Virus record (IMG/VR): IMGVR_UViG_3300008110_000439
Location: 1 to 51,557 of that record
Origin: a virus
Taxonomy: Duplodnaviria; Caudoviricetes
Direction: 5' to 3' (one strand)
Length of the DNA stretch: 51,557 nt
Shown here: positions 1,226 to 51,557 of the stretch, one piece after another
Position numbering within the stretch: position 1 is the stretch's first letter
Layout: each line of letters begins with the position of its first letter
The notes under the pieces: model-generated
Databases searched by the model: none
What the model was told of the DNA's origin: nothing
Seen by the model: the letters and a program-made list of their open reading frames with translations, nothing else
Made by a program: the position numbers and the translations under genes

Positions 1226-1375
1226 TTAGGCATAGGCGGCCTCGATCTGCTCACCGCAGTGGGAGCAGTAGAGGTTGGTGTCTTCCCAGTTGACATCGAT
1301 AGCAATGACAGTCCAGCCGTCGGTGCCAGTGCTGAGCTGATCAGCTAGGCGTAGGGATTTGGATTGCGTGGTCAT
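1226..1375 (-). CDS. small hypothetical protein, 49 aa, not in ORF track
   Basis: Manual translation MTTQSKSLRLADQLSTGTDGWTVIAIDVNWEDTNLYCSHCGEQIEAAYA, one CxxC. Confidence 0.55.
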   Translation of the reverse strand: MTTQSKSLRLADQLSTGTDGWTVIAIDVNWEDTNLYCSHCGEQIEAAYA

Positions 1376-1409
1376 TAGTTGCTAAGGGGTAAGGGGAGCG
1401 GGATAAGGC

Positions 1410-1541
1410 TTAGCGGCGGGGCGGTCTGCCTAGGCAGCGCTGCAGCTTACGTTCCAGCGCCTTCATGCGGAGGGTGAGCAGGATCTGGCTGATGCAGAAC
1501 ATGGCGCAAGCCACGCTGAGTGCAGTAATGGGTGAGGACAT
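1410..1541 (-). CDS. small membrane peptide, 43 aa
   Basis: Manual translation MSSPITALSVACAMFCISQILLTLRMKALERK...; hydrophobic N-terminus; co-oriented with neighbours. Confidence 0.45.
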   Translation of the reverse strand: MSSPITALSVACAMFCISQILLTLRMKALERKLQRCLGRPPRR

Positions 1542-1564
1542 GGGGTGTAGTGCGGCCTAGCGGG

Positions 1565-1759
1565 TGAGACTCATGAGACTGGACTTGAGACAGCAATGCT
1601 TAGCTGCTTAGGGATGGGTTGGCGTAGCGGAAGAAGCTCTCTGCGGTTTCGTCGAGGGGGTCGACCGGGGAGAGGAGGTCTTCGCAGTTGTCCGCACCAC
1701 GACTAAGCAGGGTGGGGTAGGGCTGTGTGGCTGTCTCATTAGCTGTCTCATGAGTCTCA
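1565..1759. repeat. pair of 30-bp inverted repeats TGAGACTCATGAGAC-N6-TGAGACAGC
   Basis: 1565-1594 and 1730-1759 are reverse complements except for the N6 spacer. Confidence 0.85.
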
Positions 1760-1890
1760 CCTGGGAGGCTCACGCCCAACTCGTTACTTAGCCATTGCTG
1801 CACAGACTTAGGGGCGGTGCGGCCTAGGCGGGTAAGCACGTCGCGCATGAGTGCGAGCGCGATGTGGAGTGGCGTAATTGGTGCAGTCAT
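1600..1890 (-). CDS. hypothetical protein
   Basis: 96-aa ORF in the minus-strand cluster. Confidence 0.55.
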   Translation of the reverse strand: MTAPITPLHIALALMRDVLTRLGRTAPKSVQQWLSNELGVSLPGETHETANETATQPYPTLLSRGADNCEDLLSPVDPLDETAESFFRYANPSLSS

Positions 1891-1930
1891 TGGCGGAACA
1901 ACTTAGGGTCTGCGGAGTTGTGGTGCTGGT

Positions 1931-2116
1931 GTGCCTAGGGAGTGGGATAGCGAGGAGCGGGAACCATGGAATCCCAAGATTGCATCGATAATTAAGACTA
2001 TTGATCTACATAATGTGTACTACTTAAGTGGTGGCGGTGAACGCCACCTACTTATGGCGCAGATGCTACGGGAGTATATGTACGAATTAAAGGAGTGGCT
2101 AAGCGAGGCCAGTTAG
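1931..2116 (+). CDS. hypothetical protein
   Basis: 61-aa ORF (REPWN..I...IDLHN..YL) resembling small cyanophage proteins from recall. Confidence 0.55.
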   Translation: MPREWDSEEREPWNPKIASIIKTIDLHNVYYLSGGGERHLLMAQMLREYMYELKEWLSEAS

Positions 2117-2410
2117 ACGGTCCACGGTTGCGCGGTCCAGGTCTACAGCTTCGAGGACGGTGAGGGTGTTGTCGAGTTCATCGGCCGCGTAGACGTAGGT
2201 GTTGTCGAACCAGCCAAGGGTGCGGTAGAGGGGGCCGCGTGGGTTCTCTTGGCGGCTAAGCGTGGCGTGGATTGACCATTCGCTGGGAGCGATGTCTTTG
2301 AGGTAGGTGGTGCGTGCCACGTCCTGAGCCTCTTCAGGCGAGCTGGCTAAGACGAGGCACTCGCTAAGTAGTTCGACGGCGTAGAGGCGAAGGTTAAGCG
2401 GTGTGGACAT
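2099..2410 (-). CDS. hypothetical protein
   Basis: 103-aa ORF with VLASSPEEAQDVA motif. Confidence 0.6.
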   Translation of the reverse strand: MSTPLNLRLYAVELLSECLVLASSPEEAQDVARTTYLKDIAPSEWSIHATLSRQENPRGPLYRTLGWFDNTYVYAADELDNTLTVLEAVDLDRATVDRLTGLA

Positions 2411-2465
2411 TGGGGTAAGTACGAAAGTGGTAGGGCTTAATGGTGTGATTTAGCGGCTGCGCACC

Positions 2466-3236
2466 TTAACGCTTTAGCGCCAGCGCCCAGCGGGGTGCGC
2501 GGGTGGTGCTGCCTAGGTCAGCTTGGGCGGCGTGGCTTAGGTGCTTCACCACGATGCCGTCGGTGGGCCAGGAGCGGAACGTACCACCGCTTAGCCAGGC
2601 CGTGTGGAGCTGCTCGACCTCGGCCTGCTTAGTGCAGAGGAGGGTGTCGGGCACCTGGAAGGAAAGGCGGCTGAGTAGGTCGATGGTGGAGGTCTCGTCG
2701 GAGCGGGGGGTGTGGCTAAGGGGCGCGGTGTAAGCGCTGAAGTGGAGGCCGGTGCCGCTGAGCTGCTTCTTCCTTAGGGCGGCGGCGGGGGTGGATTGTT
2801 TGTGGTCGTCGGACCAGAGCTCGCCGGTCACGTCGAAGACGCCGCTGAGTGCTGTGGCGACACCGCTGAGGCGCTTGGGGATGTCGCTGATGAGGAGAGC
2901 CAGGGCCAGAGCACACTTACCGCTGCGGGTCCAGGCGGCTGTGAGGATGCCGTCTTCGTAGCGGAGGGCAAGGGCGATGCCATCGATCTTGGGCTGGACT
3001 ACGACGCCCACGGGCTTGGTGGCGTCCCACCAGTCACCTAGGTCGGAGCAGTCGAGACTTAGGAGGGCGGTGCCGCCGCCTGGTTGCTGGAGTTCGGGGG
3101 CGTGGGGGGCCACGCTGCGGAGCTGCGCGATGAGGGTGTCAAAGGCCTCGTCGCTCATCAGGGGCGTCCCAGCGCGGTAGGCAGCGTCGGCCTGGCGGAC
3201 TTGGTTGCGGAGCGATTCGACCGAAGCGGTAGGCAC
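2466..3236 (-). CDS. NAD+-dependent DNA ligase-like protein, domain Ia plus adenylation domain only
   Basis: Ia-like AY..GTPLMSDEAFD; motif I PKIDG; TRSG; motif III GE; motif IV PTDGIVVK; motif V PRWALALK then stop. Confidence 0.85.
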   Translation of the reverse strand: MPTASVESLRNQVRQADAAYRAGTPLMSDEAFDTLIAQLRSVAPHAPELQQPGGGTALLSLDCSDLGDWWDATKPVGVVVQPKIDGIALALRYEDGILTAAWTRSGKCALALALLISDIPKRLSGVATALSGVFDVTGELWSDDHKQSTPAAALRKKQLSGTGLHFSAYTAPLSHTPRSDETSTIDLLSRLSFQVPDTLLCTKQAEVEQLHTAWLSGGTFRSWPTDGIVVKHLSHAAQADLGSTTRAPRWALALKR

Positions 3237-3289
3237 AAGTGGTAAGGGGGTAAGGGGGTAAGCGGCGCTGGGGGGCGTTGCTTGAGATC

Positions 3290-3319
3290 AATGTAGCACT
3301 AGGTGGCGCGGCTGCGCAA
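3290..3319 (-). promoter_or_regulatory. putative sigma70-type promoter for the ligase-like gene cluster
   Basis: TTGCGC-18 bp-TACATT with TG extension on the minus strand. Confidence 0.45.
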
Positions 3320-3336
3320 GCGGGCGGCGCCGCGAC

Positions 3337-4059
3337 TTAGCCCATCGCATCCCTTAGGGCCTGGGTTAGGAGCGTGGGCAGTAGGCGGTCTGACGTGGCC
3401 TTGGTGCGGCCGTAGAAGTCGAAGATGGTGGGTACGGTGGGTTCCTTGGTGGTGAGGCGGAAGAGTAAGTCGAGTTTTCTGTTCTTGACTTGGTAGATGC
3501 CGTTGGACAGGTGGTTGGCGCGTCTGGAGGGCTTGCGGCGGTCGGGGACAGAGAAATAACGCGGGGCGTTTTTGCCGGAGCCCATACCGGTGTCGCTTTT
3601 GAGGGCAGTTAGCACTTGCTGGTACTGTCCGCGGGACATGTTTCCCTGGATGAGCCGTACCCCACGGCCTTTTAGGAAAGGGATGGCGTACATCGAAGGG
3701 TCGATGATGCCGTTCTTGCGTAGGGCGCGTGTGAAGCGGGTGATGTACGCAGGCTTACCGCCGGTGCCGTCCTCGGTGCTGACTGGATAGAGGTAACGCG
3801 CAGGATCCTGACCATCGGGACCGTCAGTGCTGATGCTTATACGCAGCTCTAGGCCGTCTGCGGCGTAGCGAGGGGAGCGCAGGGTGAACTGCACTGGATT
3901 AGCGAACTGCTCGCCCATGTACTGGGCAAGGTCTTTGCGCAGCTCGAAGCCCAGCTTCTGCATGCTGCGCTTGCCGGCGTAGGGCAGCTGCACCGACTGC
4001 AGCGCCGTGACGTAGCCGATAAGTTGGTCGGCCTGGAAGGTGATGGACTGGTTGGCCAT
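3337..4059 (-). CDS. phage protein, possibly of the virion morphogenesis/neck family
   Basis: 240-aa basic ORF; QLPYA...F.NPVQFT...FDFY pattern resembles a family usually found beside terminase genes. Confidence 0.5.
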   Translation of the reverse strand: MANQSITFQADQLIGYVTALQSVQLPYAGKRSMQKLGFELRKDLAQYMGEQFANPVQFTLRSPRYAADGLELRISISTDGPDGQDPARYLYPVSTEDGTGGKPAYITRFTRALRKNGIIDPSMYAIPFLKGRGVRLIQGNMSRGQYQQVLTALKSDTGMGSGKNAPRYFSVPDRRKPSRRANHLSNGIYQVKNRKLDLLFRLTTKEPTVPTIFDFYGRTKATSDRLLPTLLTQALRDAMG

Positions 4060-4084
4060 AAGGTGCGCAGCTAAGTGCTGGTGC

Positions 4085-4900
4085 TTAGGTGCTTAGCCCT
4101 GCCGCAAGCTTATCGAAGTACTGTTCGCAGCGTTCTAGATAGCGGTATTCGGCGCCACGCAGTTCAAGCTCACTCAAGGGTCTTAGGTCTACGGGACCTG
4201 CGCGGCGGGCGATGACGATGTAGGCAGCTTTAGCTTGTATACCAGTAAGGTGCTTAAGTCCGAGACTATAGGCACCTAACTGATCTGTGTAATCAACCAG
4301 CATAGCTTCGCTGCGTCGATTGAAGGATGATTTCCAGTCGACCAAGGTTGGGCCTACGCCTTGTACGTCTAATAGAGCATCACAAGTACCGGCAAAGCCT
4401 GCAGGGTGGTGAATACTGAACTCGATGGCGTGGATGGCTGTGACGTTCTCCTCAATCCACGCAAGGAGGGACCGCTTATACCCATTAGCGCTGAAGCCTA
4501 CCTTCGGTGCATTAGGAAGAACGCGCTTGAGGGCCCAGCGGGTGAGGGGAGCTGGGGCACGCAACAAGCCGTCAGGCTTCTCATAGATAGAGCCTTTCTT
4601 CTTAGCGGTTTGATCAGCAAGCTTCTTAGCAGCCCGGAGCACGTACTCAGCAGAGTTGTGCATGCGTGTGCCGCGTTCGGCTGCCGTGTCGCGTTCCACG
4701 GCAGCACGCTCTTCGCCAAGGCGAGCTACCCAGGCTTCGAGGGCGGTTTTGCTGTCGCTGGTTTCTTTGAGGATGCGGGTGACGCTGTGGTAAATCTCAC
4801 CGGCGCTGTCGCGGTAAATGCGCCCATTGGGGTCGGTCTCGTCGTCCCTTTCGAGCTGGGAGCGCTTAAGAGCGGCAAGGCGTTCGTTGGGCGTGAGCAC
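4085..4900 (-). CDS. PD-(D/E)XK exonuclease (MGME1/Cas4-like)
   Basis: YHSVTRIL, RGTRMH, FAGTCDAL, LVDWKSS, QLGAY motifs. Confidence 0.85.
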   Translation of the reverse strand: MLTPNERLAALKRSQLERDDETDPNGRIYRDSAGEIYHSVTRILKETSDSKTALEAWVARLGEERAAVERDTAAERGTRMHNSAEYVLRAAKKLADQTAKKKGSIYEKPDGLLRAPAPLTRWALKRVLPNAPKVGFSANGYKRSLLAWIEENVTAIHAIEFSIHHPAGFAGTCDALLDVQGVGPTLVDWKSSFNRRSEAMLVDYTDQLGAYSLGLKHLTGIQAKAAYIVIARRAGPVDLRPLSELELRGAEYRYLERCEQYFDKLAAGLST

Positions 4901-4940
4901 TAAGTGGGCGCGGGTAAGGGGAGCAGCGGATGGAGCGATA

Positions 4941-4969
4941 AAGAAAAAGCCCCCTAAGTGTGGGGGCTT
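4941..4969 (-). terminator. putative Rho-independent terminator
   Basis: AAGCCCC...GGGGCTT hairpin with an A-run on the plus side, giving a U-tract on minus. Confidence 0.55.
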
Positions 4970-4975
4970 GGCAGC

Positions 4976-5179
4976 TTATGTGAAACGGCTTGCCCACTCG
5001 CCACAGCCTTGAGAGCCGTGAACGACAGGCCAGAGGGTTCTGTAATTGGTGCCCTCTGGGAATGGGCCGCAAGTGGGAGCGTGGCGATGACACTCCCCCA
5101 AGGTGAAGGGAGGATCAAGGGATTGGTCCTCGAAGTGCCAGCCCCAGCGGCAAGTGCCGCAGATCTGGTGCTCCTTCAT
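4976..5179 (-). CDS. small Cys4 metal-binding protein
   Basis: CGTC...GECHRHAP...WP.V...GCGEW. Confidence 0.7.
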   Translation of the reverse strand: MKEHQICGTCRWGWHFEDQSLDPPFTLGECHRHAPTCGPFPEGTNYRTLWPVVHGSQGCGEWASRFT

Positions 5180-5180
5180 G

Positions 5181-5765
5181 TCAAGCCTTGTCTTCCTTGA
5201 AGGGATTACCGCCTACGAGGAGGCGCTCCAGGGCAAAGCCGGCAGCCTTGGCCTCTTCCCACTTAGCAGCAATGTTGGCGTCGGCGCCTTTCTTGCGGGG
5301 GACGGGGAGCAGCTTGTACTCGGTGTTGAGGCCGCTGCCTTCCTTACCCAGCGTGAAGTCCGTTGCGGTGAGGTCTTCGTAATCCTCGGTCTGGCTGATC
5401 GAGTCAAGTTCGCGGATGATCGACTTCTGGGTCAGGTTGAACACCTGGACCTCGTCCGCCTCGTAGTTGTAGACGGGCAGGGCGATGGCGAACTTAATGG
5501 CTTCAGGGCCGGTGCCTTCGCGGTTCTGGCGGCGGGTGAAGTCGCCGAGCTCGAGGGCGATGTCGTCGGGGGTGGGCTCTTGGGCGAAGCGGAAGGGCTT
5601 GGCCTTGCCGTCCGGGCCCTCAGCCCAGAGTTCGTAGTACTCGACCGGCTCGTCGCTCAGCAGGGCGAAACGGACGGAGGAGCCAGCAGCGATTTTGCTG
5701 GGGTTCAGGTAACCACCGCCTGCGCCGGCAACAGCGGCTTGGGCGTTCTTAGAGAGGAGAGCCAT
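5181..5765 (-). CDS. single-stranded DNA-binding protein (putative)
   Basis: Lies between primase and exonuclease; VYNY..DEVQV...TQKSI, G.GL.TEY.L.P, acidic composition, C-terminal GGNPF. Confidence 0.7.
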   Translation of the reverse strand: MALLSKNAQAAVAGAGGGYLNPSKIAAGSSVRFALLSDEPVEYYELWAEGPDGKAKPFRFAQEPTPDDIALELGDFTRRQNREGTGPEAIKFAIALPVYNYEADEVQVFNLTQKSIIRELDSISQTEDYEDLTATDFTLGKEGSGLNTEYKLLPVPRKKGADANIAAKWEEAKAAGFALERLLVGGNPFKEDKA

Positions 5766-5953
5766 GAGTGGGTTGTGGGGTTGTGCAGCAGGCAGTGCCG
5801 TGAGGCGGTGCCGAGTGCTTGAGAAGCTTAGGCGGGTGAGCGGGAAGCGGCAAGACGTAAGCCGTGGAGGAGGAACGGCTGAGGCGCTGCTGAGGCGCTG
5901 CGGTACTGGTGTACCACTGCTGAGCGGCGCTGCTTAGCAGCTCAGAAGCGTGA

Positions 5954-6377
5954 ACCCGTGAGTAACCCGTGAGTAGTGAATTCACGGGTCTGGCGAGGAC
6001 AAGAACCTAGTCATAGGAAGGGATTAGAGAGAAAAAGAGAGTAAACCCGTGAACCCGTGAACTGTTTTTCACCAGCTCTGCTGTCAGTCTCATCAATCTC
6101 ACCCCCGCTCCCCCGATTTTTTCCTTCCTAGGCGCTCACGGGTCACGGGTTCACGGGTTGCACCAGACCCATTCCGGCGCAATCGTTTTGCCCACTCACG
6201 GGTTGGATTCAGACCCGTGACTTTTTACACGGGTTGACAAGGCCAAAAGTTGCCCCTAAGCTGCGTCAAGCAGCTCGACACGAAGCCGAGGCGAGCCGCC
6301 AAGAAACGGTGTCTTGAGTGAGTCTCATGAGACAGCGCATTTTTAAGGCCTGCTAAGCTGCGTAAAGCAGCTCAACA
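5954..6377. promoter_or_regulatory. putative replication origin (iterons plus hairpins)
   Basis: Eleven ACCCGTGA/TCACGGGT copies in both orientations and two AGCTGC-N5-GCAGCT hairpin repeats in a non-coding gap just downstream of the primase gene. Confidence 0.65.
6234..6262 (+). promoter_or_regulatory. sigma70-type promoter
   Basis: TTGACA-17 bp-TAAGCT. Confidence 0.55.
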
Positions 6378-6413
6378 GGCCCGGCAAGCGCTACAGCTCA
6401 GCGACTTAGCCGC

Positions 6414-8954
6414 CTACTCAAGCTGCCAGCGCACTTGGTCGCGACGGACAGCGCGAACTAGACGACCAACGCCGTAGTCGTTGACCAGGCGTTCGAGCAT
6501 CTGCCTGGCCTCGCCTCCGCTGTTGGCCCACTTCTTCAGCACGAGGTCGCGATGGGTGACGGTGCCGGTCCCGTTGTCCTCGGCTAGGCGGACGATCTTG
6601 ACGACCCAATGGGGGAGATCGCCGCCACCCACCTGAGGAGCTAGCACGTCGAACTGGCAGATGAAGAAGCGGCAGAGCACCACGGCCCGTTCCATTACGT
6701 CCTTGGTGATCAACTCGCCCATGGCGTGCTCCGGGGCCTCTGCGGCGTAGTCAAGGGCGTGGAGCAGGCCAGCAGTACGCGCCAGGTAACCGCGCATCTT
6801 GCCGAGGAAGGCGGAGCGGCTGGCATAGGTGAGGTCGGCCTCAACGCTCCACTCGTCGCAGACCTGAGCAAAGAGCTCCCATGCCTCAGGATCCAGCCTC
6901 ACCACCTTGTGACGCCCAATAGAGGTGTCGAGCTCGTGAATTAGCTCGTGCAGCTCCTTCGTGATCTCAGCCTCGTTGAGGTTCTGCTTAGGAAAGACGT
7001 ATTCGGGGACGATCCAGAGGAAACGGGCCCAGAAGCCATCACCTGATTTGGCTGTGGCGTCATCACCGTGGAGCAGATCGGTGAGCTTGTCCTGCTGGAT
7101 GGCACCGAAGACGTTTACGGCAGTGCGGTCCACCATGATCGGGTCGCAGCCCTTGCGGACGATGTTGATCGAGCCGCCACTCCACATGCTGAGCCAGTGG
7201 GCCCGGTCACTATTGTTGCTGCGGTACTTGTCCATGTCACCGATGAACGCCGCAAGCTCGTCGTGGAAGCTGACGACGCCATGAACGTCCTCGCGCTCGA
7301 GAAGGGTGCAGAGGCCCTCAAGGGTGGCGTCTATCACGACACGTTGTCTAGGTAGGGCTGGGGGTTCTTCCCGGTCCTCCCTAGGCAGTGCTTTGTAGCG
7401 CATAAGGTCGCGCTTGTAAGCGCGTTGGTCTTGCCCGTCGAGAGTAAACAGGGGACCAAGAAACTGGTTGGCCACAGGTGTCTTTAGGGATGAGGCGGGA
7501 GCTACGGTGCCCATCCAAAAGACCAGTGGTTCGCGCCACCCCTCTTTGATCTGAACGCGAAAGCGCTTGCCCATCACTGCGCACATGGTGGTGATGAACG
7601 GTGCAATTAGCGCAGTATGGGCTACGGGGAAAGCATCAGCTCGGCCGCCTAAGAGGTCTGCGATACGTGGGTGGAATACAGATTGCAATTTGAGTTGAGT
7701 TGCGGCCGACTTAGACCACTGCTTAAAGCTGGTCTGGCGCAATTCTCTCAGTAGTTCGTCATCTTCGCTATTGCGCTGCTCCTTACGGATTTCGCGCAGA
7801 ACTGGCCATGGACGAGGCCAGCCGTTGTACTCAGCTGTATCGAAAACGTGGTAGATGCGCTTGTACGGAACACCTTGACGCTCATCGCTGCTTCGGCGGA
7901 TGGCCTCAGCTTGTTGTTCGAGGTTCCAGTGCTCGGTGGACCAGTTCGCGTTTACAGCAATGCTTATGGCTTGGTCTGCACCAAATTCATTAACTAGCGC
8001 TGCATAGATGCTGAAGGCGGCGCCATAGGTGTTGGTGCCTGGCTCAAGACGCTGAGGGCAGTAGGTAAGAGCAGTTATACAGAGCCGCACCTTTTCTTCG
8101 TGCGTGAGGCTGCTGTAGTGGGGGCCATTGGGCTTGTACTCGCTGTCGTAGGCCTCTTGGCTTTTGACGAAGGCGGCATAGGCCTTGGCATCAATGTCTC
8201 GATCAGGGAACTCAACAGCTTGCTGAGGAGCTGCAGTCTTAGGGAGTGCTTTGCCGAGCTGCTGACGAGCTGCGTTGCTAAGGAGGCCGCGCTTGCCTTC
8301 AGCAGTACGCAGGCTCAAGCCGGCTGCATCGCCGAGATGCTGCTCAGGGGGATCCGTCAGTGCAACCAGTTGACTTAGAGGGAAGCGCTCGCCGGTGGCA
8401 CTGATCACGCGGCTTAATTCGCCGGTTTCGGGATGCTTACCACCGGCCAGGCGCATGACACGAGCAGGATTGCAGAGTTTGGTGTCAATCTCTACGCCGG
8501 TAACGGTGCGCTTGACGTGGGCGAAGAGGCGCTTTTGAGCTTGGCGGAACTCGACGCCACTGCAGGGCTGGTCAAGGATCCAATAGTTGTGGACGGACTT
8601 TCCGCCTGTCCACATCTGCAGAGAGGGGTGGGGGAGACCAGCCTCTACCCATTGCTGCTTCTTTTCGTCGAGGTTGCTGAGGGGATTGTCGTCCTCGTAG
8701 AAAAGGGCGCGGCAGTAGGTGATCTCACTGTTCTTAGTTCCGCCCCAGTTTGGGATGTAGCCAAAGCCGTAGCCAGGACGTGCGGCAAGTTCCCGCTCGA
8801 TCCGTGCTTTGTCGAGGACCCCTTCAACGTCGATGTGGTGGCAGGGCAAGTCCTCTCCCTTTTTCTTTGGGGGGAAGAGGGCGATGAAGTAGCCCTCTTC
8901 GGCTGTGATGCCCAAGTGACTTAGCTGCTCTTCGACTTGGGTCCAATCCACCAT
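6414..8954 (-). CDS. RepB-like DNA primase fused to a DUF3987 (YfjI-like) P-loop domain; start uncertain (8954-9056)
   Basis: FYEDD, TGGKSVHNYW, NPARVMRLAG (RepB primase); APASSLKTP, DATLEGL, HDELAAF, GAIQ, GDGFWARFL (DUF3987). Confidence 0.8.
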   Translation of the reverse strand: MVDWTQVEEQLSHLGITAEEGYFIALFPPKKKGEDLPCHHIDVEGVLDKARIERELAARPGYGFGYIPNWGGTKNSEITYCRALFYEDDNPLSNLDEKKQQWVEAGLPHPSLQMWTGGKSVHNYWILDQPCSGVEFRQAQKRLFAHVKRTVTGVEIDTKLCNPARVMRLAGGKHPETGELSRVISATGERFPLSQLVALTDPPEQHLGDAAGLSLRTAEGKRGLLSNAARQQLGKALPKTAAPQQAVEFPDRDIDAKAYAAFVKSQEAYDSEYKPNGPHYSSLTHEEKVRLCITALTYCPQRLEPGTNTYGAAFSIYAALVNEFGADQAISIAVNANWSTEHWNLEQQAEAIRRSSDERQGVPYKRIYHVFDTAEYNGWPRPWPVLREIRKEQRNSEDDELLRELRQTSFKQWSKSAATQLKLQSVFHPRIADLLGGRADAFPVAHTALIAPFITTMCAVMGKRFRVQIKEGWREPLVFWMGTVAPASSLKTPVANQFLGPLFTLDGQDQRAYKRDLMRYKALPREDREEPPALPRQRVVIDATLEGLCTLLEREDVHGVVSFHDELAAFIGDMDKYRSNNSDRAHWLSMWSGGSINIVRKGCDPIMVDRTAVNVFGAIQQDKLTDLLHGDDATAKSGDGFWARFLWIVPEYVFPKQNLNEAEITKELHELIHELDTSIGRHKVVRLDPEAWELFAQVCDEWSVEADLTYASRSAFLGKMRGYLARTAGLLHALDYAAEAPEHAMGELITKDVMERAVVLCRFFICQFDVLAPQVGGGDLPHWVVKIVRLAEDNGTGTVTHRDLVLKKWANSGGEARQMLERLVNDYGVGRLVRAVRRDQVRWQLE

Positions 8955-43367: not shown

Positions 43368-43392
43368 GACCTATTCCGCTGTTTAACGCAGT

Positions 43393-43820: not shown

Positions 43821-43860
43821 TGTTTCGATTGATGTGATGGAAGTCTAGGTAGAACGCAAA

Positions 43861-43890
43861 GAAAAGCCCCAGACCACTTAGGCCTGGGGC
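43861..43890 (-). terminator. Rho-independent terminator after the head genes
   Basis: AGCCCCAG...CTGGGGCT hairpin with an A-run on the plus side. Confidence 0.65.
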
Positions 43891-43914
43891 TCGGGGACGC
43901 TTTCCGCTAAAAGC

Positions 43915-44328: not shown

Positions 44329-44331
44329 GGA

Positions 44332-44580
44332 TCAGTCCTCGGTGGGTTGAGGGGCAGGTTTGGCAGCCTTGGCCTTGGTGGCCGGAGGCTTAGCGGGCTT
44401 GGCTTCAGCTTCGACGGAAGGGGCGGGCACCTCGGTGGGTGCGACCTCTTCAGCCTTGGCGCGTTCAGCTTTGCCGCTGCTAAGTAGAAGGGTGGCGTCG
44501 GCGTCAGCGATGTCCAGGGTGGAGCCGGCGGTGGCCGGCTCTCCTGAGATCATCACCTGCCTAAGCAAGGTGATTCGCAT
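44332..44580 (-). CDS. small capsid-adjacent protein
   Basis: DA..LL..GKAE followed by an Ala/Pro/Lys tail. Confidence 0.7.
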   Translation of the reverse strand: MRITLLRQVMISGEPATAGSTLDIADADATLLLSSGKAERAKAEEVAPTEVPAPSVEAEAKPAKPPATKAKAAKPAPQPTED

Positions 44581-44611
44581 CGTTACTCAGCGATAGTGCA
44601 ACTGCTTAGGC

Positions 44612-47600
44612 TCAGGTGCCGTAGCAGAAGGCGCCAGGCTGCTTGACGGCGAAGTCAACGTCCTGCAGAGCGATGATGCGGACGGTGCCTGCGGTGGCGC
44701 CGGCGTAGGGATCGACGGTCAGGTCGAGGCCGGACCACATGCCCATGATCATCATCGAGAAGTCACCAAACAGTGCGTCGTTGTTGAGCAGCTGGTTGGA
44801 GACGATGGCTGGATAGCCGTTGATCTCGTCGTTCTCGTACACGAAGCCAGCAGCCACGGCGGTGGCGGACTTGGCGGTGGACTTGAGAGCGCCACGGGCA
44901 GCAGCGTTGATGATGTAGCGCATGGAGCCGGCATCGGCGTTAGCGCTGGCCACATCGGTTTCCATGCCGATGTACTCGGCGAAGGTGCCGAAAGTGCTGA
45001 TGGTCTGGCTGCCGACGCCGGTGGTGTTCACCAGGCCCAGAGGCTGGTTGCTGGAACCGGTGCCGTAGATGCCAGCGCGGTCCAGCTCGAGGGCGATCAC
45101 GCGGGCGAGGTCGTTGCGCACCATGCCTTCCACATCGATGGAGGACTGGAGCAGCAGGCGACGGCTGTAGTCAACGAATGCACCCACTGTCTTGGGGGTC
45201 ATGTTGACTTGGTCGATGGACTGCTGAGATTCCGTGGGAGCCACGTTCTCACCAACCCAGTAAGCCGTGCTGGCCGAGGCTTGGCGGGGGATGCTGATGT
45301 TGCCCTGCAGGCCGCTCAGCATGGTCACACCGGCGTTGGCCAGAGCGAGACGATTGCGGAGCAGGTCGATGAAGGAACCGCTCAGCAGCTCGTCGGCGAC
45401 GAGGTTGCCACCAGCAGAGGGAGTACCAGCGACGAGGTCACGACGCAGCACCTCGTTGGGCACCACGATGCCGTTGGAGGAACGCTCGTACTTCTTAGCG
45501 GCGGCTTCGCCGACTTCGATCTCGAATTCGGCAGCACGGCGGGCCGAGGCATCGCCTTGGTTTGCCAGGAAGTTGAGGGCGCGAACGAAGCTGAAGCGCT
45601 TGGTCTCTTTATCCGACAGACCCACGTCGTTGGTGGTGATGTCAGCGGAGCGGATGGGTTGTTCCATGGGGGTAGAGCCGAGTTTGTCGAGGACGGCGGC
45701 GCGAGCCTCATCGAGGGTGCGACCACCTTCGATCAGTTCACGGGCCAGGTCTTGCATCTGGTGCTTAGAGCCCAGTGCGGTGATGGCGGCGATGCGGGTC
45801 CGCTCGGCCTCAGCGGCCTTGGACCGGATCACCTCCAGATCAGGGGTGTTTTCCATTTCGGGAATGGGGGTAGATGCGGTTTGGGCCGCTTGGCGTTGGT
45901 CCTGCATCTCCTCTACTTCCGTAGGGGGAACAGGCGCTTCATTAGTGATAATAGGTGTGGCGCCTTCACAGTCCCCAGTAAGTTGCGTGGTTGCGCTGCG
46001 AAGTTCAGGCACAACGTCGGTAATTAGTGAGCGCCCGATTCCAATGGTGGGATCAGCTGGGATACTCACCACGCTTACCTCGTGGGGGGACCACTTAGTT
46101 GCTACGTAGTCGCCATTGCGCTCTTCCATCTTGTCGATGGCGTAGCCGAAGCTGATGCCCCGAAGGATGCCATCCTTCACATCATCCAGCACTTCTTGGG
46201 CGAATTTGTTGCGGGAGAAGCGGACCTTGGCATAGCCACGCTTGTCTTTGTCGTTGATGTAGGCACGCTCTACTACACCGACAACCTTGTCGGGATTGTG
46301 GTTGAACAGCAGAGGGGCGCCGTCATTGAGGCGGGCTAGGTCAGCTGCGTCACCTTCGTGGCTGAGTACTTCGTTGCCGAAGTAACGGGCCACGGGATAC
46401 TCAGAGCTGAAGGGGAACTCGAAGGTCCGCTCCTCAAGTGCGCGGAAGTGAGTGGCTTCGGTTCGGGTATAAGTGCCGCTTAGGTCGCGCTGGGCGGTTT
46501 CAAGAGTGCGAAGAGCTTCGATTTTGCGCAGCGTCGAGAACTTGTGGCCGACAAGAGTTTCGGTGGCGTCCCAGCCGTCAGCACCTTCGCGGTAGATGCG
46601 AATTAGAGCAGCGGGATCTTCGGCGGTGGCGTTGATGCTGAACTCGGAGTCGGGGACGCCGAGGGTGCCTTCGCGCATCACGTGTTCGATACGGCCGCGT
46701 GCCGTACCACCGGAGCTGTTCCAGCTAACGAAATCGCCTGTACTTAGGTCGGAGGGCTTAGCGCGTTCCACGGATTCATCAGCGGCACTTAGTTCTTCAA
46801 CCTTAATGCGCTCGCCTGTTGCTTCCTCGAATTGAATCGGGGTGTAATCGTGCTCGCGAAGCCATTGACGGGCCTCGGAAGCCGTGAATTCACTTAGGCG
46901 GAAGCGGATTGCTTGAAGATCGGTGCCTTGCTCACCTGTTTTGATGCCGAAGATGAAATCGACACCCTTACCTGCGGCGTTGTTGCGGCGGCGGAAGCGG
47001 TCGTAAGCCGAGGGGTCCTTCAGGCGAGCGGCGTGCTCTTGCGGGTAGGGACGACCCTCATTAGGTTCTTCGGCCTCGGACATTAGGCGCTCAGGGACGA
47101 TCCAAAATTTGCAGACGCCTGCCGGATCGATGTCGCCGCTGACGATTTCGCAGGCGCGGGGACCGGCATAGAAGGCGCAGTTTGCGCAGACCATGCCATC
47201 AGAAGCGAAGGGGCTTTCGCTCATGTAATGGGCACCGTGAGCACCAGAACCCTGGTCGAAGGCGCCGAGGTCTTCGGCGATCTCTTCGAGGGCTTCGTAT
47301 AGCGCGACTTGCGGGGCTTTTAGCTCCGCAGTCAGTTCGCGGTCTTTGTCGATGGTGCTCATGATGTTGTCACTCCAGGATTTGCCGGGATCGCCACCCC
47401 ATGCTGCCCAGGCGACCCGGCCAGGAGAGGGGTAGCCTTCTTCGCCTGGACTGAAGCCTTGGCCCTGTTTGTCTACTTCGTGGCGGGCGAACCACGCGGA
47501 CATGGTTCGGACGGTCTCAGCGCTAAGGGGGTCGCCGCTAAGTATTTGGGAGGCGCGGTTGGCTGCGACTTCCGTGCCACCGGCATTGCCTTCTGCCTTC

Positions 47601-47656
47601 CAAGCCCGGTAGCGCTGAGCTTCCTCGCGCATCGCAGCGGTAGGTAAGTAGCTCAT
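44612..47656 (-). CDS. multidomain prohead protease-major capsid protein fusion (HK97 fold)
   Basis: Protease PLLFNHN...ISFGY...EVSVVSIPAD; capsid AGGNLV, IPRQ...AYWVGE, FGDFS; about 390 aa of extra N-terminal domains. Confidence 0.9.
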   Translation of the reverse strand: MSYLPTAAMREEAQRYRAWKAEGNAGGTEVAANRASQILSGDPLSAETVRTMSAWFARHEVDKQGQGFSPGEEGYPSPGRVAWAAWGGDPGKSWSDNIMSTIDKDRELTAELKAPQVALYEALEEIAEDLGAFDQGSGAHGAHYMSESPFASDGMVCANCAFYAGPRACEIVSGDIDPAGVCKFWIVPERLMSEAEEPNEGRPYPQEHAARLKDPSAYDRFRRRNNAAGKGVDFIFGIKTGEQGTDLQAIRFRLSEFTASEARQWLREHDYTPIQFEEATGERIKVEELSAADESVERAKPSDLSTGDFVSWNSSGGTARGRIEHVMREGTLGVPDSEFSINATAEDPAALIRIYREGADGWDATETLVGHKFSTLRKIEALRTLETAQRDLSGTYTRTEATHFRALEERTFEFPFSSEYPVARYFGNEVLSHEGDAADLARLNDGAPLLFNHNPDKVVGVVERAYINDKDKRGYAKVRFSRNKFAQEVLDDVKDGILRGISFGYAIDKMEERNGDYVATKWSPHEVSVVSIPADPTIGIGRSLITDVVPELRSATTQLTGDCEGATPIITNEAPVPPTEVEEMQDQRQAAQTASTPIPEMENTPDLEVIRSKAAEAERTRIAAITALGSKHQMQDLARELIEGGRTLDEARAAVLDKLGSTPMEQPIRSADITTNDVGLSDKETKRFSFVRALNFLANQGDASARRAAEFEIEVGEAAAKKYERSSNGIVVPNEVLRRDLVAGTPSAGGNLVADELLSGSFIDLLRNRLALANAGVTMLSGLQGNISIPRQASASTAYWVGENVAPTESQQSIDQVNMTPKTVGAFVDYSRRLLLQSSIDVEGMVRNDLARVIALELDRAGIYGTGSSNQPLGLVNTTGVGSQTISTFGTFAEYIGMETDVASANADAGSMRYIINAAARGALKSTAKSATAVAAGFVYENDEINGYPAIVSNQLLNNDALFGDFSMMIMGMWSGLDLTVDPYAGATAGTVRIIALQDVDFAVKQPGAFCYGT

Positions 47657-49170
47657 AGGTTTGGCTCAGTAAACGGATCTGGGGAGGAGGGCGTAGGGGA
47701 AGAGGCGGGAATTAGACCTAGGTCCTTATCGAGGGTCAAACCCGCATCCTTAGCGAGTTGCTGTTCGCGGGCCAGTTCGCTGACGTTGTCGTCGTAGTCG
47801 CCGCCGCTTTGGGCGATGATCTGGGACTTGGTCATGTAGCCGGCTTGCTCGGCTTCGCGGTAGGCCTTGACTTCCTTGAGCGGATCGACCCAGGTCCAAC
47901 CCCGTGGCATCCAGTGAGGACTGTCATAGCGCTCGGGACGAAGCTCGTAATCCGGGAAGCTAAGTTCACCGCTAAGAACGGCGAGGCTTAGCCACTCGCG
48001 GAAGACGCGCATGTGGAAGTTTTCAATTAGGTAGTTCTGGACTACGCGCCAGTGCTCGCGATCTTCTAAGAGGCTGAGGCGCGAACTTGAGTAATTAGTG
48101 TCGGAAAAGTCGCGGCTCAAGGTTTCGTAGCTGCAGCCGAAGCCGGAGGCGAAACGGCGCACCTTGTTGCGCACGAACATCTCGAACTGTTGGTCTGGGG
48201 AATCGATCGAGGGAACGGTGACATTTTCGCCGGGCGCTAGATACTTAAACGTACCAGGTTCGAATTCACTAATTCGTTGATTATTCTCTATGTCGTCGGC
48301 TGTAAGTTCCCCTTCATTATTAGTGACGAAACCCATTAGCGAAGCACCGGCGCGGGCACGGATGACTGCGGCTTCCTCGTAGCCCTGCAGCTGATGCGCG
48401 TCGGACATCACCGGGTGGAACCAGGGCACTCCACGGTTTTGTGAAGGCCGCTCTGGCAAGAAAAGGTGAATTACGTCTTCGGCGGGTAGGAAGACGTGTT
48501 TGGCGTTGTTCTGGGGGACGTTCTGGAACCAGTAGTCGCCGGGGTGCCTTGTGAGCATGGCGTAGCGCACTGGGCGGCCCCACTCGTTGACCTCAACGCC
48601 GTTGCGCCATTCGTTGGCTGGGGCGAGGGTGGTGCCGTTGTACTCCTCGTCTAGAAGGTCGCTTTCGAGGATCTGTAGCGCGAGGGGGACCTTGGAGCCG
48701 CCAAAGGAGCGCCTAATGATGCGGAAAATGGCTTCGCCGGATTCGGGGAGGGCTCCGGTGGCTAGCCATTCGAGTTGGTGGAAGCTGTAACGGCCGGCTA
48801 CGTCGCAGTGCTCGGCGCGGGTCCAGACCTGCCACTTGGCCTCGATGAGTTTATTGATGCGGTCGTCGCGCTTGTTGCCACGTAGTTGCTGCACCTGGCT
48901 TTGCAGCTTGATGCCCGTGCCAACGACGTTGATCTGGGTGGTGCGCTTGGCCTGTTTGGCGTAAGGGTTGTTGCGGACCAGCTCGCGGGAGCGGTCGCGC
49001 AGTTTGCGCAGGCTGGTGCGAATCTCCGCGTCAGCGCTGGTTTGATTAGCGAGCCAGTCGGCCGTGAGGCGGGAGATGATGGCGCCTTGGTACTGGCGGC
49101 GTGCAGTGCGTGCCGGGGCGACGGGCTTGGCGAAGCCGAGTGCGCGAAGGAGGTTAGTGCGGATGCCCAT
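47653..49170 (-). CDS. portal protein, lambda family
   Basis: LRDRSRELVRNNPYA, GVEVNEWGRPVRY, RGVPW, NYSSSR, WVDPLKE. Confidence 0.95.
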   Translation of the reverse strand: MGIRTNLLRALGFAKPVAPARTARRQYQGAIISRLTADWLANQTSADAEIRTSLRKLRDRSRELVRNNPYAKQAKRTTQINVVGTGIKLQSQVQQLRGNKRDDRINKLIEAKWQVWTRAEHCDVAGRYSFHQLEWLATGALPESGEAIFRIIRRSFGGSKVPLALQILESDLLDEEYNGTTLAPANEWRNGVEVNEWGRPVRYAMLTRHPGDYWFQNVPQNNAKHVFLPAEDVIHLFLPERPSQNRGVPWFHPVMSDAHQLQGYEEAAVIRARAGASLMGFVTNNEGELTADDIENNQRISEFEPGTFKYLAPGENVTVPSIDSPDQQFEMFVRNKVRRFASGFGCSYETLSRDFSDTNYSSSRLSLLEDREHWRVVQNYLIENFHMRVFREWLSLAVLSGELSFPDYELRPERYDSPHWMPRGWTWVDPLKEVKAYREAEQAGYMTKSQIIAQSGGDYDDNVSELAREQQLAKDAGLTLDKDLGLIPASSPTPSSPDPFTEPNL

Positions 49171-49174
49171 CGTC

Positions 49175-49747
49175 TTAGTTGAAGCGGACGAACATGTTGC
49201 GCGGGTTGCCGAGGCCATTGGCCATGAGTTGCGCCGCTTCTTCGCGTTTTACGTCAGCTTTTAGCTTTGCTTCAAGCTGAAGTAGGTCGGCGAGGTCGTA
49301 CTTCTTCAGATTACGGGTGCCGATGCGATATTCCTGGACAGCTCCACCGCTCAGGATGGTGCGGATCGCGGCCTGGACGGCATCAAGGTCTTTCTGGGAT
49401 TGGGTGCGACCGTCGTAAGCGGTGGGAATGCCGGCATAAGTGAGTGCAGGCAGCACTTCGGTGGAGCCCGTACCGACGGTGATGGTGGAGCCGGCCTTAG
49501 TGGCAATGGCCTGCCAGTACCAAGTGCCGGCATCGAAAGGTGCGCTGGTAGCGGCAGAGATGGTGAACTGCCAGCCACTTCCGTAGGCGCTACCTACAAC
49601 GGTTGAGCCTTCGGCTGCAGTATTAGTGCGTAGGTAATAGGTGAGCGTGTAATCGGTGCTGCTTATGGGGTTACCGAGGTTATCGACGGTGGCCTCGTCG
49701 CGCCACGTGATGGTGTCGCCGGCTTGGATCTGGGAGGGAATCTGCAC
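49175..49747 (-). CDS. head completion/adaptor protein (gpW-like C-terminus)
   Basis: VQEYRIGTRNL...L.DL; between terminase and portal. Confidence 0.7.
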   Translation of the reverse strand: MQIPSQIQAGDTITWRDEATVDNLGNPISSTDYTLTYYLRTNTAAEGSTVVGSAYGSGWQFTISAATSAPFDAGTWYWQAIATKAGSTITVGTGSTEVLPALTYAGIPTAYDGRTQSQKDLDAVQAAIRTILSGGAVQEYRIGTRNLKKYDLADLLQLEAKLKADVKREEAAQLMANGLGNPRNMFVRFN

Positions 49748-49751
49748 GGGC

Positions 49752-51557
49752 TCACCAGCTCTTGACGAAATTGCCTCGTTTAGGGGCGTTTTGTTGTTGT
49801 GATCGTAGCGGAGCTGCCTGCTTAGGTTCATTACGGCGCTCTAGTTGGTCCCAGATGGTGCGTCTGTCGTATTTCTGATAGAGGCGATGCAAAGCTGCGT
49901 AGGCGTAATTCATCTCGTCAAGGGCTTCGTTTGCTGCTTGGCTTTTCTTTACCCAAATGCGTTCGGGGAAGCCGTTGCGGAAACGCAGGATTTGTTTCTC
50001 GGCTGTGAGTTCCTCAAAGTAGTCGGTGCCGATGGTGGGGTAAAAGTGCAGGTAGCCGGGTCCAGGGTCGTTGTGCTTGAGGCGGCCAAACAAAAGAGAC
50101 TTGATACCGTCCGAGCCAACAGGGAAGAGCTGTGCCCCCTTCTTTAGGGCTTTGCCTTTGAAGTTCACGTCCACCTTTGTGGCCTTGCCTAGGGGTGGTT
50201 TGCCCTTCTGGCTTTGGCCCTTGATGGCGATGACGCCGATGTTGGCGCGTTCGCGGGCGTATTGGTAGACCTCCTGGGTGTGGTGGCCGCCTGAGTCGAT
50301 GGCGCAGCAGAGCACGCTCATTTCCTCGCCGGTTTCGTTGGTGTAGGGCTTACCAAGCACCTCGTCGAGCTGTTTCCAGACTTCAGGGCGGCTTGGGCTG
50401 CCGTAGATCTTGACGCGGTCAATCAACCAGCCCTCTTCTTCCCGGCCCCAGGCCCAGACGCTCAGACTGAGACGGTCGTCCTGAACGTCGCAGCCCACGG
50501 TGAGGGCAAGCGCTTCTGGTGGCGGGCAGTGCTGCTTATAGGTCTCCTTACCGGCGCGTTCCATAAGCGAATCCGCGCCGATCTTGGAGGCGTACTCGTC
50601 CTCCCACGTCTCGCCTAGGACGGTGTTGACGAAGGTTTTTAGTTGCTCAGCGTCGTGCTTAGTATCCAAAAACTCCTCCACCAGATTAGGCCAAGTGGCG
50701 TTGGGGGAGTAGCTGTAGGCGGCCCAGATATGGAAGCCGATGTGCTTGCCGTTGCCAGGGGAGGTGGGGCGCCATTCACCGCGCTCGACCATCCAGCGCT
50801 TCTTGGAGTGAGGTATTAAAGTGCTACAGCTCTCGCACTTATATGTGGCGGTGGCGGGGTCGTTGTCGCTCCACGTCATTTGGGGCCAGCGGAGGTACTG
50901 CATGTGGTTGCAGTAGGGGCATGGGACGAAGTAGCGGCGCTGATCGGTCTGCTGGAACATCCGCTCGACGCGGCTGAAGTCTTTGACCGTGGGGGTGGAG
51001 CCGGCGACGATCTTGCGATTCCAGTAGTACTCGGTACGGCGGATGCCGAGCTTGATCTGGTCGCCCTCTGCACCAGCAGAGGCGGGGTAACCGTCGATTT
51101 CGTCGAAGAGGACGATGCGCCGGCTGACTCGGCGGAAGCCGCGGGGTGAATTAGCGCCCACGAGACTTAGCGTTCCACCGGGGAACTGTTTCTGGAGGAT
51201 CGTGTTAGCGCCGTCTTTGGCTTTGCTGTCGCTGACAAGGCCGCGGAGGCACGGGGTGTCGCGCAGCATGGGCGCGATTTCTTCTTTGGAGTAGCCCTGC
51301 GCGTCCTCGATGGTGGGCAGGACGAGCATTATGGGGGCAGGGTCTTGGTGTACGTGGTAGGCGATAACGTGGTTGAGTATTTTGCTGTAGCCCACGCGGG
51401 CTGATTTCATTACCGTTACTTGTTCTACGTTATTGCTGCTTATTGCGTCCATAATGCCCTTTTGGTAGGGCAAAGTGTGCCAACGGCCGCCTTCTGCGCT
51501 GCTTTCGGCGCTAAGGAAGGCGTAGGTGTCGGCCCACTCGCTGAGGGTGAGCTTGCG
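49752..51557 (-). CDS. terL: terminase large subunit, gpA family, 5' end outside the window
   Basis: LSEWAD, KSARVGYS, FDEIDGYP, STPT, FVNTVLGETW, GCDVQ, IDSGG, NEALD; frame open to the window end. Confidence 0.95.
   Translation of the reverse strand, partial: RKLTLSEWADTYAFLSAESSAEGGRWHTLPYQKGIMDAISSNNVEQVTVMKSARVGYSKILNHVIAYHVHQDPAPIMLVLPTIEDAQGYSKEEIAPMLRDTPCLRGLVSDSKAKDGANTILQKQFPGGTLSLVGANSPRGFRRVSRRIVLFDEIDGYPASAGAEGDQIKLGIRRTEYYWNRKIVAGSTPTVKDFSRVERMFQQTDQRRYFVPCPYCNHMQYLRWPQMTWSDNDPATATYKCESCSTLIPHSKKRWMVERGEWRPTSPGNGKHIGFHIWAAYSYSPNATWPNLVEEFLDTKHDAEQLKTFVNTVLGETWEDEYASKIGADSLMERAGKETYKQHCPPPEALALTVGCDVQDDRLSLSVWAWGREEEGWLIDRVKIYGSPSRPEVWKQLDEVLGKPYTNETGEEMSVLCCAIDSGGHHTQEVYQYARERANIGVIAIKGQSQKGKPPLGKATKVDVNFKGKALKKGAQLFPVGSDGIKSLLFGRLKHNDPGPGYLHFYPTIGTDYFEELTAEKQILRFRNGFPERIWVKKSQAANEALDEMNYAYAALHRLYQKYDRRTIWDQLERRNEPKQAAPLRSQQQNAPKRGNFVKSW

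Follow-up and report, generated by a model that had tools for sequence, protein, structure and literature searches.

CTWAG, a HIP-Like Iterated Palindrome of a Lambda-Like Siphovirus Lineage

Introduction

What has filled the genome of a phage with one short palindrome? The question is raised by IMG/VR record IMGVR_UViG_3300008110_000439, a whole viral record of 51,557 bp (completeness rating 100%, 56.1% G+C) that was analyzed over its whole length and is called the window here, and by the pentamer CTWAG (CTAAG or CTTAG). A sequence-only reading of the window had reported that CTWAG is strongly but patchily over-represented, and had proposed a lineage-specific iterated motif that sets resident DNA apart from imported modules. 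The window is a lambda-like siphovirus. Its closest cultured phages are the Synechococcus siphophages S-LBS1, S-CBS1 and S-CBS3, whose portal proteins are 50-51% identical to its own.

We find that CTWAG is an element of a phage lineage that resembles the highly iterated palindromes (HIPs) of cyanobacteria, and that it is neither a mobile repeat nor a conserved set of operators. We are highly confident that the element is real, specific to one lineage and accumulated in situ. As to what drives it, we tentatively favor a sequence reader borne by the phage itself, and this explanation is weighed below against a drive imposed by the host and against several others.

Results

CTWAG Is Over-Represented in Coding and Intergenic DNA

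The element extends over the whole window:

Positions 1..51557, both strands: CTWAG as an iterated palindrome, with 199 sites over the genome (3.9 per kb)

On the + strand, 70 of these sites read CTAAG and 129 read CTTAG. Base composition predicts 85.9 sites, and Markov models of orders 1, 2 and 3 predict 94.9, 110.4 and 159.1, respectively. In 100 dinucleotide shuffles, the count was 95.2 ± 10.0 with a largest value of 122 (0/100 at or above 199). The hand counts made in the sequence-only reading were exact, with 15 sites in 1381-2640 and 2 in 12600-15960, and the stretch that it called sparse (23900-33700) holds 8.

Coding DNA, taken as 75 called genes, contains 156 of the sites. We compared this number with three types of codon-aware null model, using 300 shuffles of each and ranking all 512 pentamers. 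The expectation was 75.1 ± 8.0 under a synonymous shuffle (z 10.1), 110.1 ± 5.5 when the synonymous shuffle also preserved dinucleotides (z 8.3), and 61.4 ± 7.5 when codon order was shuffled (z 12.6). CTWAG ranked first of the 512 pentamers under each, so the enrichment persists after codon and dinucleotide correction.

All four classes of site that avoid an in-frame stop are raised, by 1.7-2.8x: NCT-AAG (58 observed, 28.0 expected), CTA-AGN (36 observed, 12.7 expected), CTT-AGN (31 observed, 15.9 expected) and NNC-TTA-GNN (28 observed, 16.1 expected). Synonymous alternatives to the motif are depleted, with ratios of 0.44 for NCT-AAA, 0.41 for NCA-AAG and 0.46 for CTW-TCN. The 3,054 nt of strictly intergenic DNA hold 24 sites against 7.8 ± 2.6 expected, a number reached in 0 of 500 shuffles. 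Because the motif is enriched in all of these frame classes and between genes, the excess lies at the level of the DNA, on both strands, and is not a matter of codon usage. The original claim of over-representation on both strands, in coding and non-coding DNA, therefore stands.

These counts bear directly on the simplest explanation, in which CTWAG is a by-product of composition or codon choice (a preference for GCT, CTA and AAG, off-frame stops, or stop-codon context). Some features point that way: more coding sites (34) lie in GCT-AAG (Ala-Lys) than in any other context, 10 of the 19 TAA stop codons lie within C-TAA-G, and every coding occurrence of the motif carries an off-frame TAA or TAG. 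However, the first rank of CTWAG in all three codon-aware comparisons refutes a by-product as far as these nulls go, and the motif is enriched in four frame classes, on both strands and 3x in intergenic DNA. TAA is slightly raised overall and TAG is depleted, and orthologous genes hold 0-1 sites in sister clades, as opposed to 6-7 in the CTWAG-rich clade described below. We consider this explanation extremely improbable. Selection for off-frame stops (‘ambush’ selection) was tried separately and rejected, TAA being barely raised, TAG depleted and non-coding DNA more enriched than coding DNA.

CTTAG outnumbers CTAAG on the + strand in genes of either orientation (27:18 and 76:35; P = 8e-5 against a coding-sense model). 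This bias runs in the same direction as the composition of that strand, which is G-rich (GC skew positive in 16/17 3-kb windows) and T-rich regardless of gene orientation. The only reversal of GC skew along the window falls in a cassette at 12-15 kb. Such a skew of the + strand over the whole genome suggests unidirectional replication or another process that is polar along the whole genome. TAATTA is also over-represented in the window (30 copies against about 10 expected), as is AATTA/CTAATT.

The Excess Follows One Phage Lineage

IMG/VR holds 291 portal relatives of the window. We placed 84 portal sequences in a tree with the cultured cyanosiphophages as root (support values are local ones from FastTree) and compared CTWAG counts in relatives with order-1 Markov expectations; many of these loci are incomplete, and several nearly duplicate one another. 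One clade, with a support of 0.999, unites the 22 tips that have 2.1-5.4 CTWAG sites/kb. Its sister group of 11 tips is intermediate (1.0-2.3 sites/kb), and the remaining tips of the tree have 0-1.2 sites/kb. Pooled, 21 loci of the high clade contain 717 sites against 270.8 expected. In the three cultured Synechococcus siphophages the observed-to-expected ratio is 0.58-0.69, and low values outside the high clade are the baseline for a word that contains TAA or TAG. Judged from this tree, the CTWAG excess is a derived trait of one lineage. The lineage-specificity proposed at the outset is borne out by the monophyletic portal clade together with a lineage of replication genes (see below), and the excess is absent from sister clades, cultured relatives and the sampled cyanobacteria.

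The sites themselves turn over. Within the high clade, sites in the portal gene occupy different alignment columns in different subclades. Between the window and a complete genome with related replication genes (G412; G and L numbers are our own labels), 2/8 site columns are shared in the helicase and 4/10-12 in the DNA polymerase, PolA. Many sites were created by amino-acid replacement: in the portal, capsid and terminase of the window, 6/20 sites lie on residues of the baseline majority, compared with 66.6% of other pentamer positions (P = 0.0009), and some replace residues that are invariant in the baseline, such as a Pro, present in 48/48 baseline sequences, that became Ser.

Conservation in relatives, which had been suggested as a check on the motif, is a little above average. 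Across four close genomes, 40/87 CTWAG positions (46%) are retained, slightly above the 36.6% for other pentamers, but the excess is modest. Against nine close relatives, 105/132 sites (101.5 expected) and 92/120 sites (81.8 expected) are conserved, and 55/61 non-coding sites are conserved where 42.7 are expected.

The flanks of CTWAG are low in information, with a weak R-CTWAG-Y preference only, and the commonest 8-mer is CTAAGCAG (18 copies over both strands). The frequent extension to GCTAAGTGG that had been described did not hold up: this 9-mer has just 5 copies, and an extended motif was rejected. Even spacing, as for a site that directs repair, was likewise rejected, the sites being clustered (variance/mean 1.7; gaps of at most 40 nt number 47, where 28.5 would be expected). 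Taken together, the uninformative flanks, the turnover of columns and the changed residues indicate that sites arose in situ by substitution and not as copies of a mobile repeat. Nor do they form a set of operators, iterons or promoters, since 156/199 are coding and their positions turn over, although some non-coding clusters and origin-adjacent repeats do carry CTWAG.

CTWAG-Poor Blocks Coincide with Exchanged Modules

Seven blocks of the window are enriched 1.8-3.1x in CTWAG, and two are at 1.0x:

Positions 12700..16250, unstranded: CTWAG-poor mobile cassette (P0001 gene, phrog_32006 paralogues), 4 sites against 4.2 expected
Positions 23100..36480, - strand: CTWAG-poor block of lysis-adjacent genes, tail fibres, gpJ and tail-tip module, 13 sites against 12.6 expected

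The cassette has zero sites in 13896-15969. Patches of it are 84-95% identical at the nucleotide level to many otherwise unrelated contigs, and it is the only stretch of the window in which GC skew and AT skew are both reversed. Three adjacent PHROG 32006 paralogues, a family with no function assigned, lie at 13793-14893 and have homologues in most related genomes.

The sparseness of the 23.1-36.5 kb block is significant at P = 0.004 against the genome-wide factor of 2.08x. Two relatives show how such a block behaves in other genomes. In G407, the head and tail-shaft proteins are 90-100% identical to those of the window and the tail-tip genes just 28-40% (amino acids), and CTWAG drops from 4-10 per kb to 0-1 per kb directly past the tape-measure gene. 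The more distant member G410, whose tail-tip genes are 64-70% identical to those of the window, keeps 3-4 CTWAG per kb there. CTWAG density thus tracks the time that DNA has spent in the lineage.

On these sequence comparisons, both CTWAG-poor blocks are horizontally exchanged modules. The idea that the motif separates resident from imported DNA is thus upheld by the poor cassette, by the poor tail-tip module and by the break in density at the same boundary in G407. Import of the tail-tip module from the sampled baseline clade was considered and rejected: similarity there is just 65-75% at the nucleotide level, and no donor was identified.

The Excess Was Not Found in the Sampled Candidate Hosts

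Parts of the window sequence are present in 20 runs from 15 studies, mostly labelled freshwater or lake metagenomes, and no prophage relatives were found among species-representative genomes. As candidate hosts we surveyed 401 Cyanobiaceae and 401 Cyanobacteriota genomes, all species representatives. In 20-kb loci of Cyanobium, Synechococcus and Vulcanococcus, the observed-to-expected ratio of CTWAG is 0-0.5 (0.22 pooled), and in high-GC picocyanobacterial loci few pentamers are as depleted as CTWAG. GCTAAG reaches a maximum of 0.73 per kb among the 401 Cyanobiaceae genomes, compared with 1.78 per kb in the window. Its ratio to the reversed control word is 92:15 in the window, and the Cyanobiaceae maximum is about 2.7. 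In the seven GCTAAG-densest genomes, and in five others picked by eye as high relative to the control word, CTWAG is at 1.07 times expectation or below. The longer word GCTWAGC reaches at most 0.23 per kb among the 401 Cyanobacteriota genomes and 0.66 per kb in the window.

Many cyanobacterial genomes (G434, G578, G739 and others) hold just 0-20 copies of GCTWAGC in 5-8 Mb. This near-absence looks like avoidance of what we take to be a GCTNAGC-type restriction site, and it implies that sites containing CTWAG are under selection in the phylum.

This survey bears on the explanation that the drive is imposed by the host. A host orphan methyltransferase, together with methyl-directed or very-short-patch-type repair at CTWAG, would ratchet the sites up, and sister phages in hosts with a CCWGG system would become CCWGG-rich, in parallel with Elhai’s model of HIP1 and the alternate HIPs and with Dcm/Vsr in the case of CCWGG. 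Some of the window’s composition does follow that of the hosts: GATC is at 1.66x at order 1, like the GATC-type excess of the hosts, and GATCG/TGATC lead the pentamers (order-1 z) of many host loci, as they do in each of the three cultured cyanosiphophages. There is also a precedent in cells, where the passages of Elhai 2015 on alternate HIPs (PMC4390886) give each of them a cognate methyltransferase and include one palindromic pentamer, GCSGC. Against a host-imposed drive, none of the surveyed representatives comes near the phage density, and the motif is depleted in the picocyanobacterial loci. In addition, three imported blocks (the cassette and two tail-tip modules) are poor in CTWAG, though their donors must have shared a cell with the phage. 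We regard a host-imposed drive as a serious possibility, somewhat less probable than a phage-borne reader.

The Related Motif CCWGG

CCWGG is over-represented in enterobacteria through Dcm methylation and Vsr very-short-patch repair, and it is also raised among relatives of the window. It is at 2.62x in a five-tip clade of the portal tree (L041, L042, L049-L051), and the fragment G791 belongs to the CCWGG-rich five of the portal family. Three larger records (G786, G788 and G789), alike among themselves and unlike the window in structural and replication genes, have CCWGG at 1.84-1.96x. In the sister group of the high clade, CCWGG is at 1.51x and CTWAG at 1.26x. In the window itself, CCWGG is at expectation (147 against 130 ± 10).

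The sequence-only reading had seen no methyltransferase in the window, and our searches agree: six-frame searches of the window and of G412 gave no match to the methyltransferase families PF01555, PF00145 and PF02086, nor to Vsr (PF03852); PF00145 and PF03852 were likewise missing from the CCWGG-rich phages. Neither the window nor G412 thus carries the cognate methyltransferase that accompanies a HIP. A phage without its own methyltransferase or Vsr gene is what a host-imposed drive would predict.

We also sought the depletion of TTWAG/CTWAA that is the signature of deamination and very-short-patch repair of the Dcm/Vsr type, and did not find it. Set against baseline lineages, the transition neighbours show no depletion (TTAAG/CTTAA 1.07, TTTAG/CTAAA 0.82), CCWAG/CTWGG is at 1.15-1.6x baseline, and the strongest depletion among neighbours is that of a transversion, GTTAG/CTAAC (0.61). 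Variants with an outer A are raised over baseline (CTAAT/ATTAG 2.2x, ATAAG 1.6x), and CCWGG-rich lineages show the same tolerance. The tolerance of an outer A and the undepleted transition neighbours point to readers of C-Y-W-R-G with protein-like specificity and argue against deamination chemistry. The undepleted neighbours likewise count against a host drive that works through repair of deaminated sites.

A further explanation makes CTWAG a relic of CCWGG, left when methylation of the inner cytosine was followed by unrepaired deamination on both strands by way of CTWGG/CCWAG. Deamination of the inner 5-methylcytosines would produce just the two transitions that separate the motifs, related lineages are CCWGG-rich, and the sister group has both motifs mildly raised. 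However, CCWGG is undepleted in CTWAG-rich genomes (1.10-1.15x), and the half-converted forms are at just 1.15-1.6x baseline. Moreover, 0/6 portal sites align with CCWGG in any of the 84 sequences, and several sites needed transversions and amino-acid changes, e.g., from Leu-Pro (CTG CCN) to Leu-Ser (CTT AGC). By analogy with CpG decay, a product enrichment of about 4x would also exceed the yield of a decaying hypermutable site. We judge this origin very improbable.

The Excess Tracks a Replication Module

Two early genes are central to the comparison of genomes that follows:

Positions 6414..9056, - strand: DUF3987 helicase (Pfam DUF3987), N-terminal part primase-polymerase-like; the enrichment follows its lineage
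Positions 9741..11702, + strand: family A DNA polymerase (PolA), in an early module common with G412 (71%)

We take the N-terminal part of the helicase to be primase-polymerase (prim-pol)-like from a conserved motif in the alignment, with no family match. A coding-like frame of 269 amino acids, unnamed by Pfam, lies at 9037-9846 (+) and shares about 100 nt with the beginning of the PolA gene, which is read in a different frame.

The complete genome G412 has a portal just 49-51% identical to that of the window, while its helicase is 79%, its PolA 71%, its nuclease 70% and its single-stranded-DNA-binding (SSB)-like protein 71% identical. It holds 209 CTWAG sites (1.97x, rank 2). The complete genome G402 has a portal 81% identical to that of the window, is without the PolA, the DUF3987 helicase and the nuclease, and has CTWAG at baseline. 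L294 (helicase 72%) is at 2.25x, and five relatives with helicases at 53% or less (G413, G414, L293, L295 and L296) are at 0-1.05. Among 23 metagenome loci, 14 of the 16 with a helicase identity of at least 64% are at 1.9-3.4x, and 0 of the 7 at 52% or less reach 1.5x.

Two proteins were tried as the driver and rejected. Relatives of PolA (about 50% identity, AT-rich) have CTWAG at 0.16-0.91. The 71-amino-acid protein P0001 is 90% identical in G412 and its gene belongs to the mobile cassette; the observed-to-expected ratio is at least 1.5 in 4/80 loci that encode it, including G412 itself, and the whole records behind two of these four are at 0.98 and 1.29.

One specific possibility, which we think unlikely, is that the phage replication machinery (the AEP-type prim-pol/helicase or an origin-adjacent partner) needs duplex or template CTWAG as a loading or initiation site, with a specificity that can be switched to CCWGG. 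Dense palindromic starts on both strands would then have evolved, overriding protein conservation. A switch between CTWAG and CCWGG does occur among close relatives (L399/L400 versus L401, helicase 72-74%), and it is also what a change of host strain would give under a host-imposed drive.

Motif Context and the Origin-Like Region

The gap between the helicase and SSB-like genes, and several other non-coding stretches, contain the motif in structured or clustered form:

Positions 5822..6413, unstranded: origin-like non-coding region, AACCCGTG/CACGGGT iterons at 5950-6240 and CTAAG-headed hairpins at 6240-6385; fold z = -5.0
Positions 4905..4975, - strand: terminator-like hairpin with CUUAG at the loop/stem edge, 8-bp G+C stem and U run; weak, z -0.8 over the whole stretch
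Positions 16201..16269, + strand: intergenic cluster of 3 sites (CTTAGCTAAGC...CTAAGC), from the sequence and the intergenic count
Positions 41245..41349, - strand: intergenic cluster of 6 sites with terminator hairpin GCCACUAAGC/GCUUAGUGGC and U run, downstream of the tail tube gene; -27.4 kcal/mol, z = -3.6
Positions 42515..42585, - strand: intergenic cluster of 3 sites without a stable fold, z = +1.25
Positions 43822..43914, - strand: terminator hairpin with CUAAG in the loop; -32.8 kcal/mol, z = -3.9

The placement of the motif within the stem or loop of terminator-like hairpins, which had been noticed at three places, was confirmed at all three. About 14 copies of AACCCGTG/CACGGGT lie in both orientations at 5950-6240. 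The iteron-like set is kept in G412 (L284 7300-7590), where the homologous region has an extra array of a 24-bp unit, CTTAGCTGCGTAAGTGCCAAGGGG, repeated 6.3 times and starting with CTTAG. The iteron region is probably the replication origin.

Other Features of the Window

Besides the genes already named, Pfam identifies a gpA-type large terminase, a lambda-family portal, a tail tube protein and gpJ among the structural proteins, as well as a prohead protease and major capsid protein fused in one frame:

Positions 44612-47656, - strand: Hva1_TUDOR-like domain, S78 prohead protease and HK97-type major capsid domain in one frame of 1014 amino acids

Other products with Pfam names are a lysozyme plus an M15 peptidase, a dCTP-deaminase-like protein, a dNMP kinase, two HNH proteins, two AP2-domain proteins, a PD-(D/E)XK nuclease, the family A DNA polymerase, the DUF3987 helicase (880 amino acids) and a protein resembling the adenylation domain of an NAD-dependent ligase. 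The left end of the record (1-182) is a tandem array of a 24-bp unit (CAAACCGCAACGGTAAGGCTCAGC) in 7.6 copies, within an open frame at 3-383; G412 has a different array at its left end (25 bp x 4). A perfect tandem duplication (72 bp x 2) lies at 28901-29045, within a gene at 28635-29045.

Discussion

Motif-poor imports, sampled hosts in which the excess was not found and the link to the replication module are what lead us to a phage-borne reader. Sites are built up in situ where DNA has long been resident; they come from point substitutions, fall on either strand and occupy all reading frames, and DNA imported by recombination begins without CTWAG. In the explanation that we favor, the duplex CTWAG would be recognized by a symmetric (dimeric) reader of the C-Y-W-R-G type, whose activity (it may bind the motif, modify it, or process strands in step with repair or replication) would favor the fixation of site gain over loss. 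Such a reader would travel with the phage lineage, and its likeliest seat is the early/replication module. The prim-pol/helicase, PolA, the PD-(D/E)XK exonuclease and the SSB-like protein belong to that module, beside an origin-like region that is itself built of CTWAG-headed hairpins and repeats.

Several observations weigh against a phage-borne reader, or against the comparisons that led to it. No candidate gene for the reader was found, Pfam and PHROGs having left most early proteins unnamed; a helix-turn-helix protein at 16835-17209, tried as the driver and rejected, is common to the CCWGG-rich records G786, G788 and G789 and missing from G412. Two loci that share the helicase lineage, L401 (72%) and L402 (64%), have CCTGG as their top pentamer and are not enriched in CTWAG, so the replication module alone does not fix the motif. 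The 16 loci with helicases at or above 64% include the near-duplicates L390/L391, L396/L412 and L399/L400 and amount to about 12-13 independent sequences. The excess of conserved sites is small and the genomes compared for it are not independent, and the gene set for the codon-aware work consisted of crude calls of our own. The survey of candidate hosts covered one genome per species. Finally, a C5 methyltransferase was absent from the four CCWGG-rich records searched (G786, G788, G789 and the fragment G791), and CCWGG reaches 1.54x in the picocyanobacterial loci too. Both the lack of this enzyme in CCWGG-rich phages that differ in architecture and the CCWGG level of these loci fit a host-imposed drive for CCWGG. 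The probability that is left beyond a phage-borne reader, a host-imposed drive, a CCWGG relic and a compositional by-product we assign to something not considered.

Like the target of Dcm/Vsr, CTWAG is a W-centered palindromic pentamer of the form C-Y-W-R-G, and sister phages are enriched in CCWGG itself; unlike in that system, the phages have no match to a Vsr or C5 methyltransferase gene, and the depletion of T:G-derived neighbours is missing for both motifs. Chi-type hotspots are enriched in phages that depend on host RecBCD/AddAB, and are asymmetric, confined to one strand and enriched in the host too. CTWAG resembles them in being a short word that is common throughout a phage genome because its density, and not its position, is selected; it is palindromic, however, and the candidate hosts that were sampled are depleted in it. 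Another point of comparison is the avoidance of restriction-site palindromes by phages and bacteria (Rusinov et al. 2015, PMC4687349), which also concerns short palindromes of the restriction/modification type. Its sign is opposite: CTWAG has accumulated.

HIP1 and the alternate HIPs of cyanobacteria offer the nearest likeness. As described in two papers (PMC4390886, PMC3025956), they are short genome-wide palindromes found in coding and non-coding DNA and thought to have formed in situ. They are also scarce in horizontally acquired genes, a scarcity that Delaye et al. 2011 (PMC3025956) used to flag xenologs. CTWAG is similarly far above expectation in coding and non-coding DNA, and stands at 1.0x in both exchanged blocks. 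It differs in that its carrier is a phage lineage and not a cell, in being A+T-centered and containing stop triplets, and in having no cognate methyltransferase gene in the genome that carries it. At 2-3.4x, or roughly 4x when sister lineages are the reference, its excess comes nowhere near that of HIP1, of which Delaye et al. 2011 (PMC3025956) count 7402 copies where 60 would be expected. Elhai 2015 (PMC4390886) does not use the word ‘phage’. Judged by title and the start of the abstract, no paper among the matches listed in a literature search deals with a CTWAG-type motif, and the literature on highly iterated palindromes that mentions phage included none on phage genomes.

Iterated palindromes of the HIP1 type have been known for decades, to our knowledge without an agreed mechanism. 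An element of this kind is now at hand in a small, fast-evolving and abundant phage lineage, where graded sister groups (baseline, intermediate and high), the CCWGG motif and datable imports that start from zero make rates of gain, the direction of selection and the reader testable. Should the loading-site explanation be true, CTWAG would be a phage-encoded, methyltransferase-independent genome-signature drive, the phage counterpart of the HIP elements. Host prediction based on oligonucleotides may mislead for such phages, since the pentamer most enriched in the phage is one of those most depleted in the hosts presumed for it. The density of CTWAG, in turn, is a ready marker of resident as opposed to recently imported DNA in these mosaic genomes.

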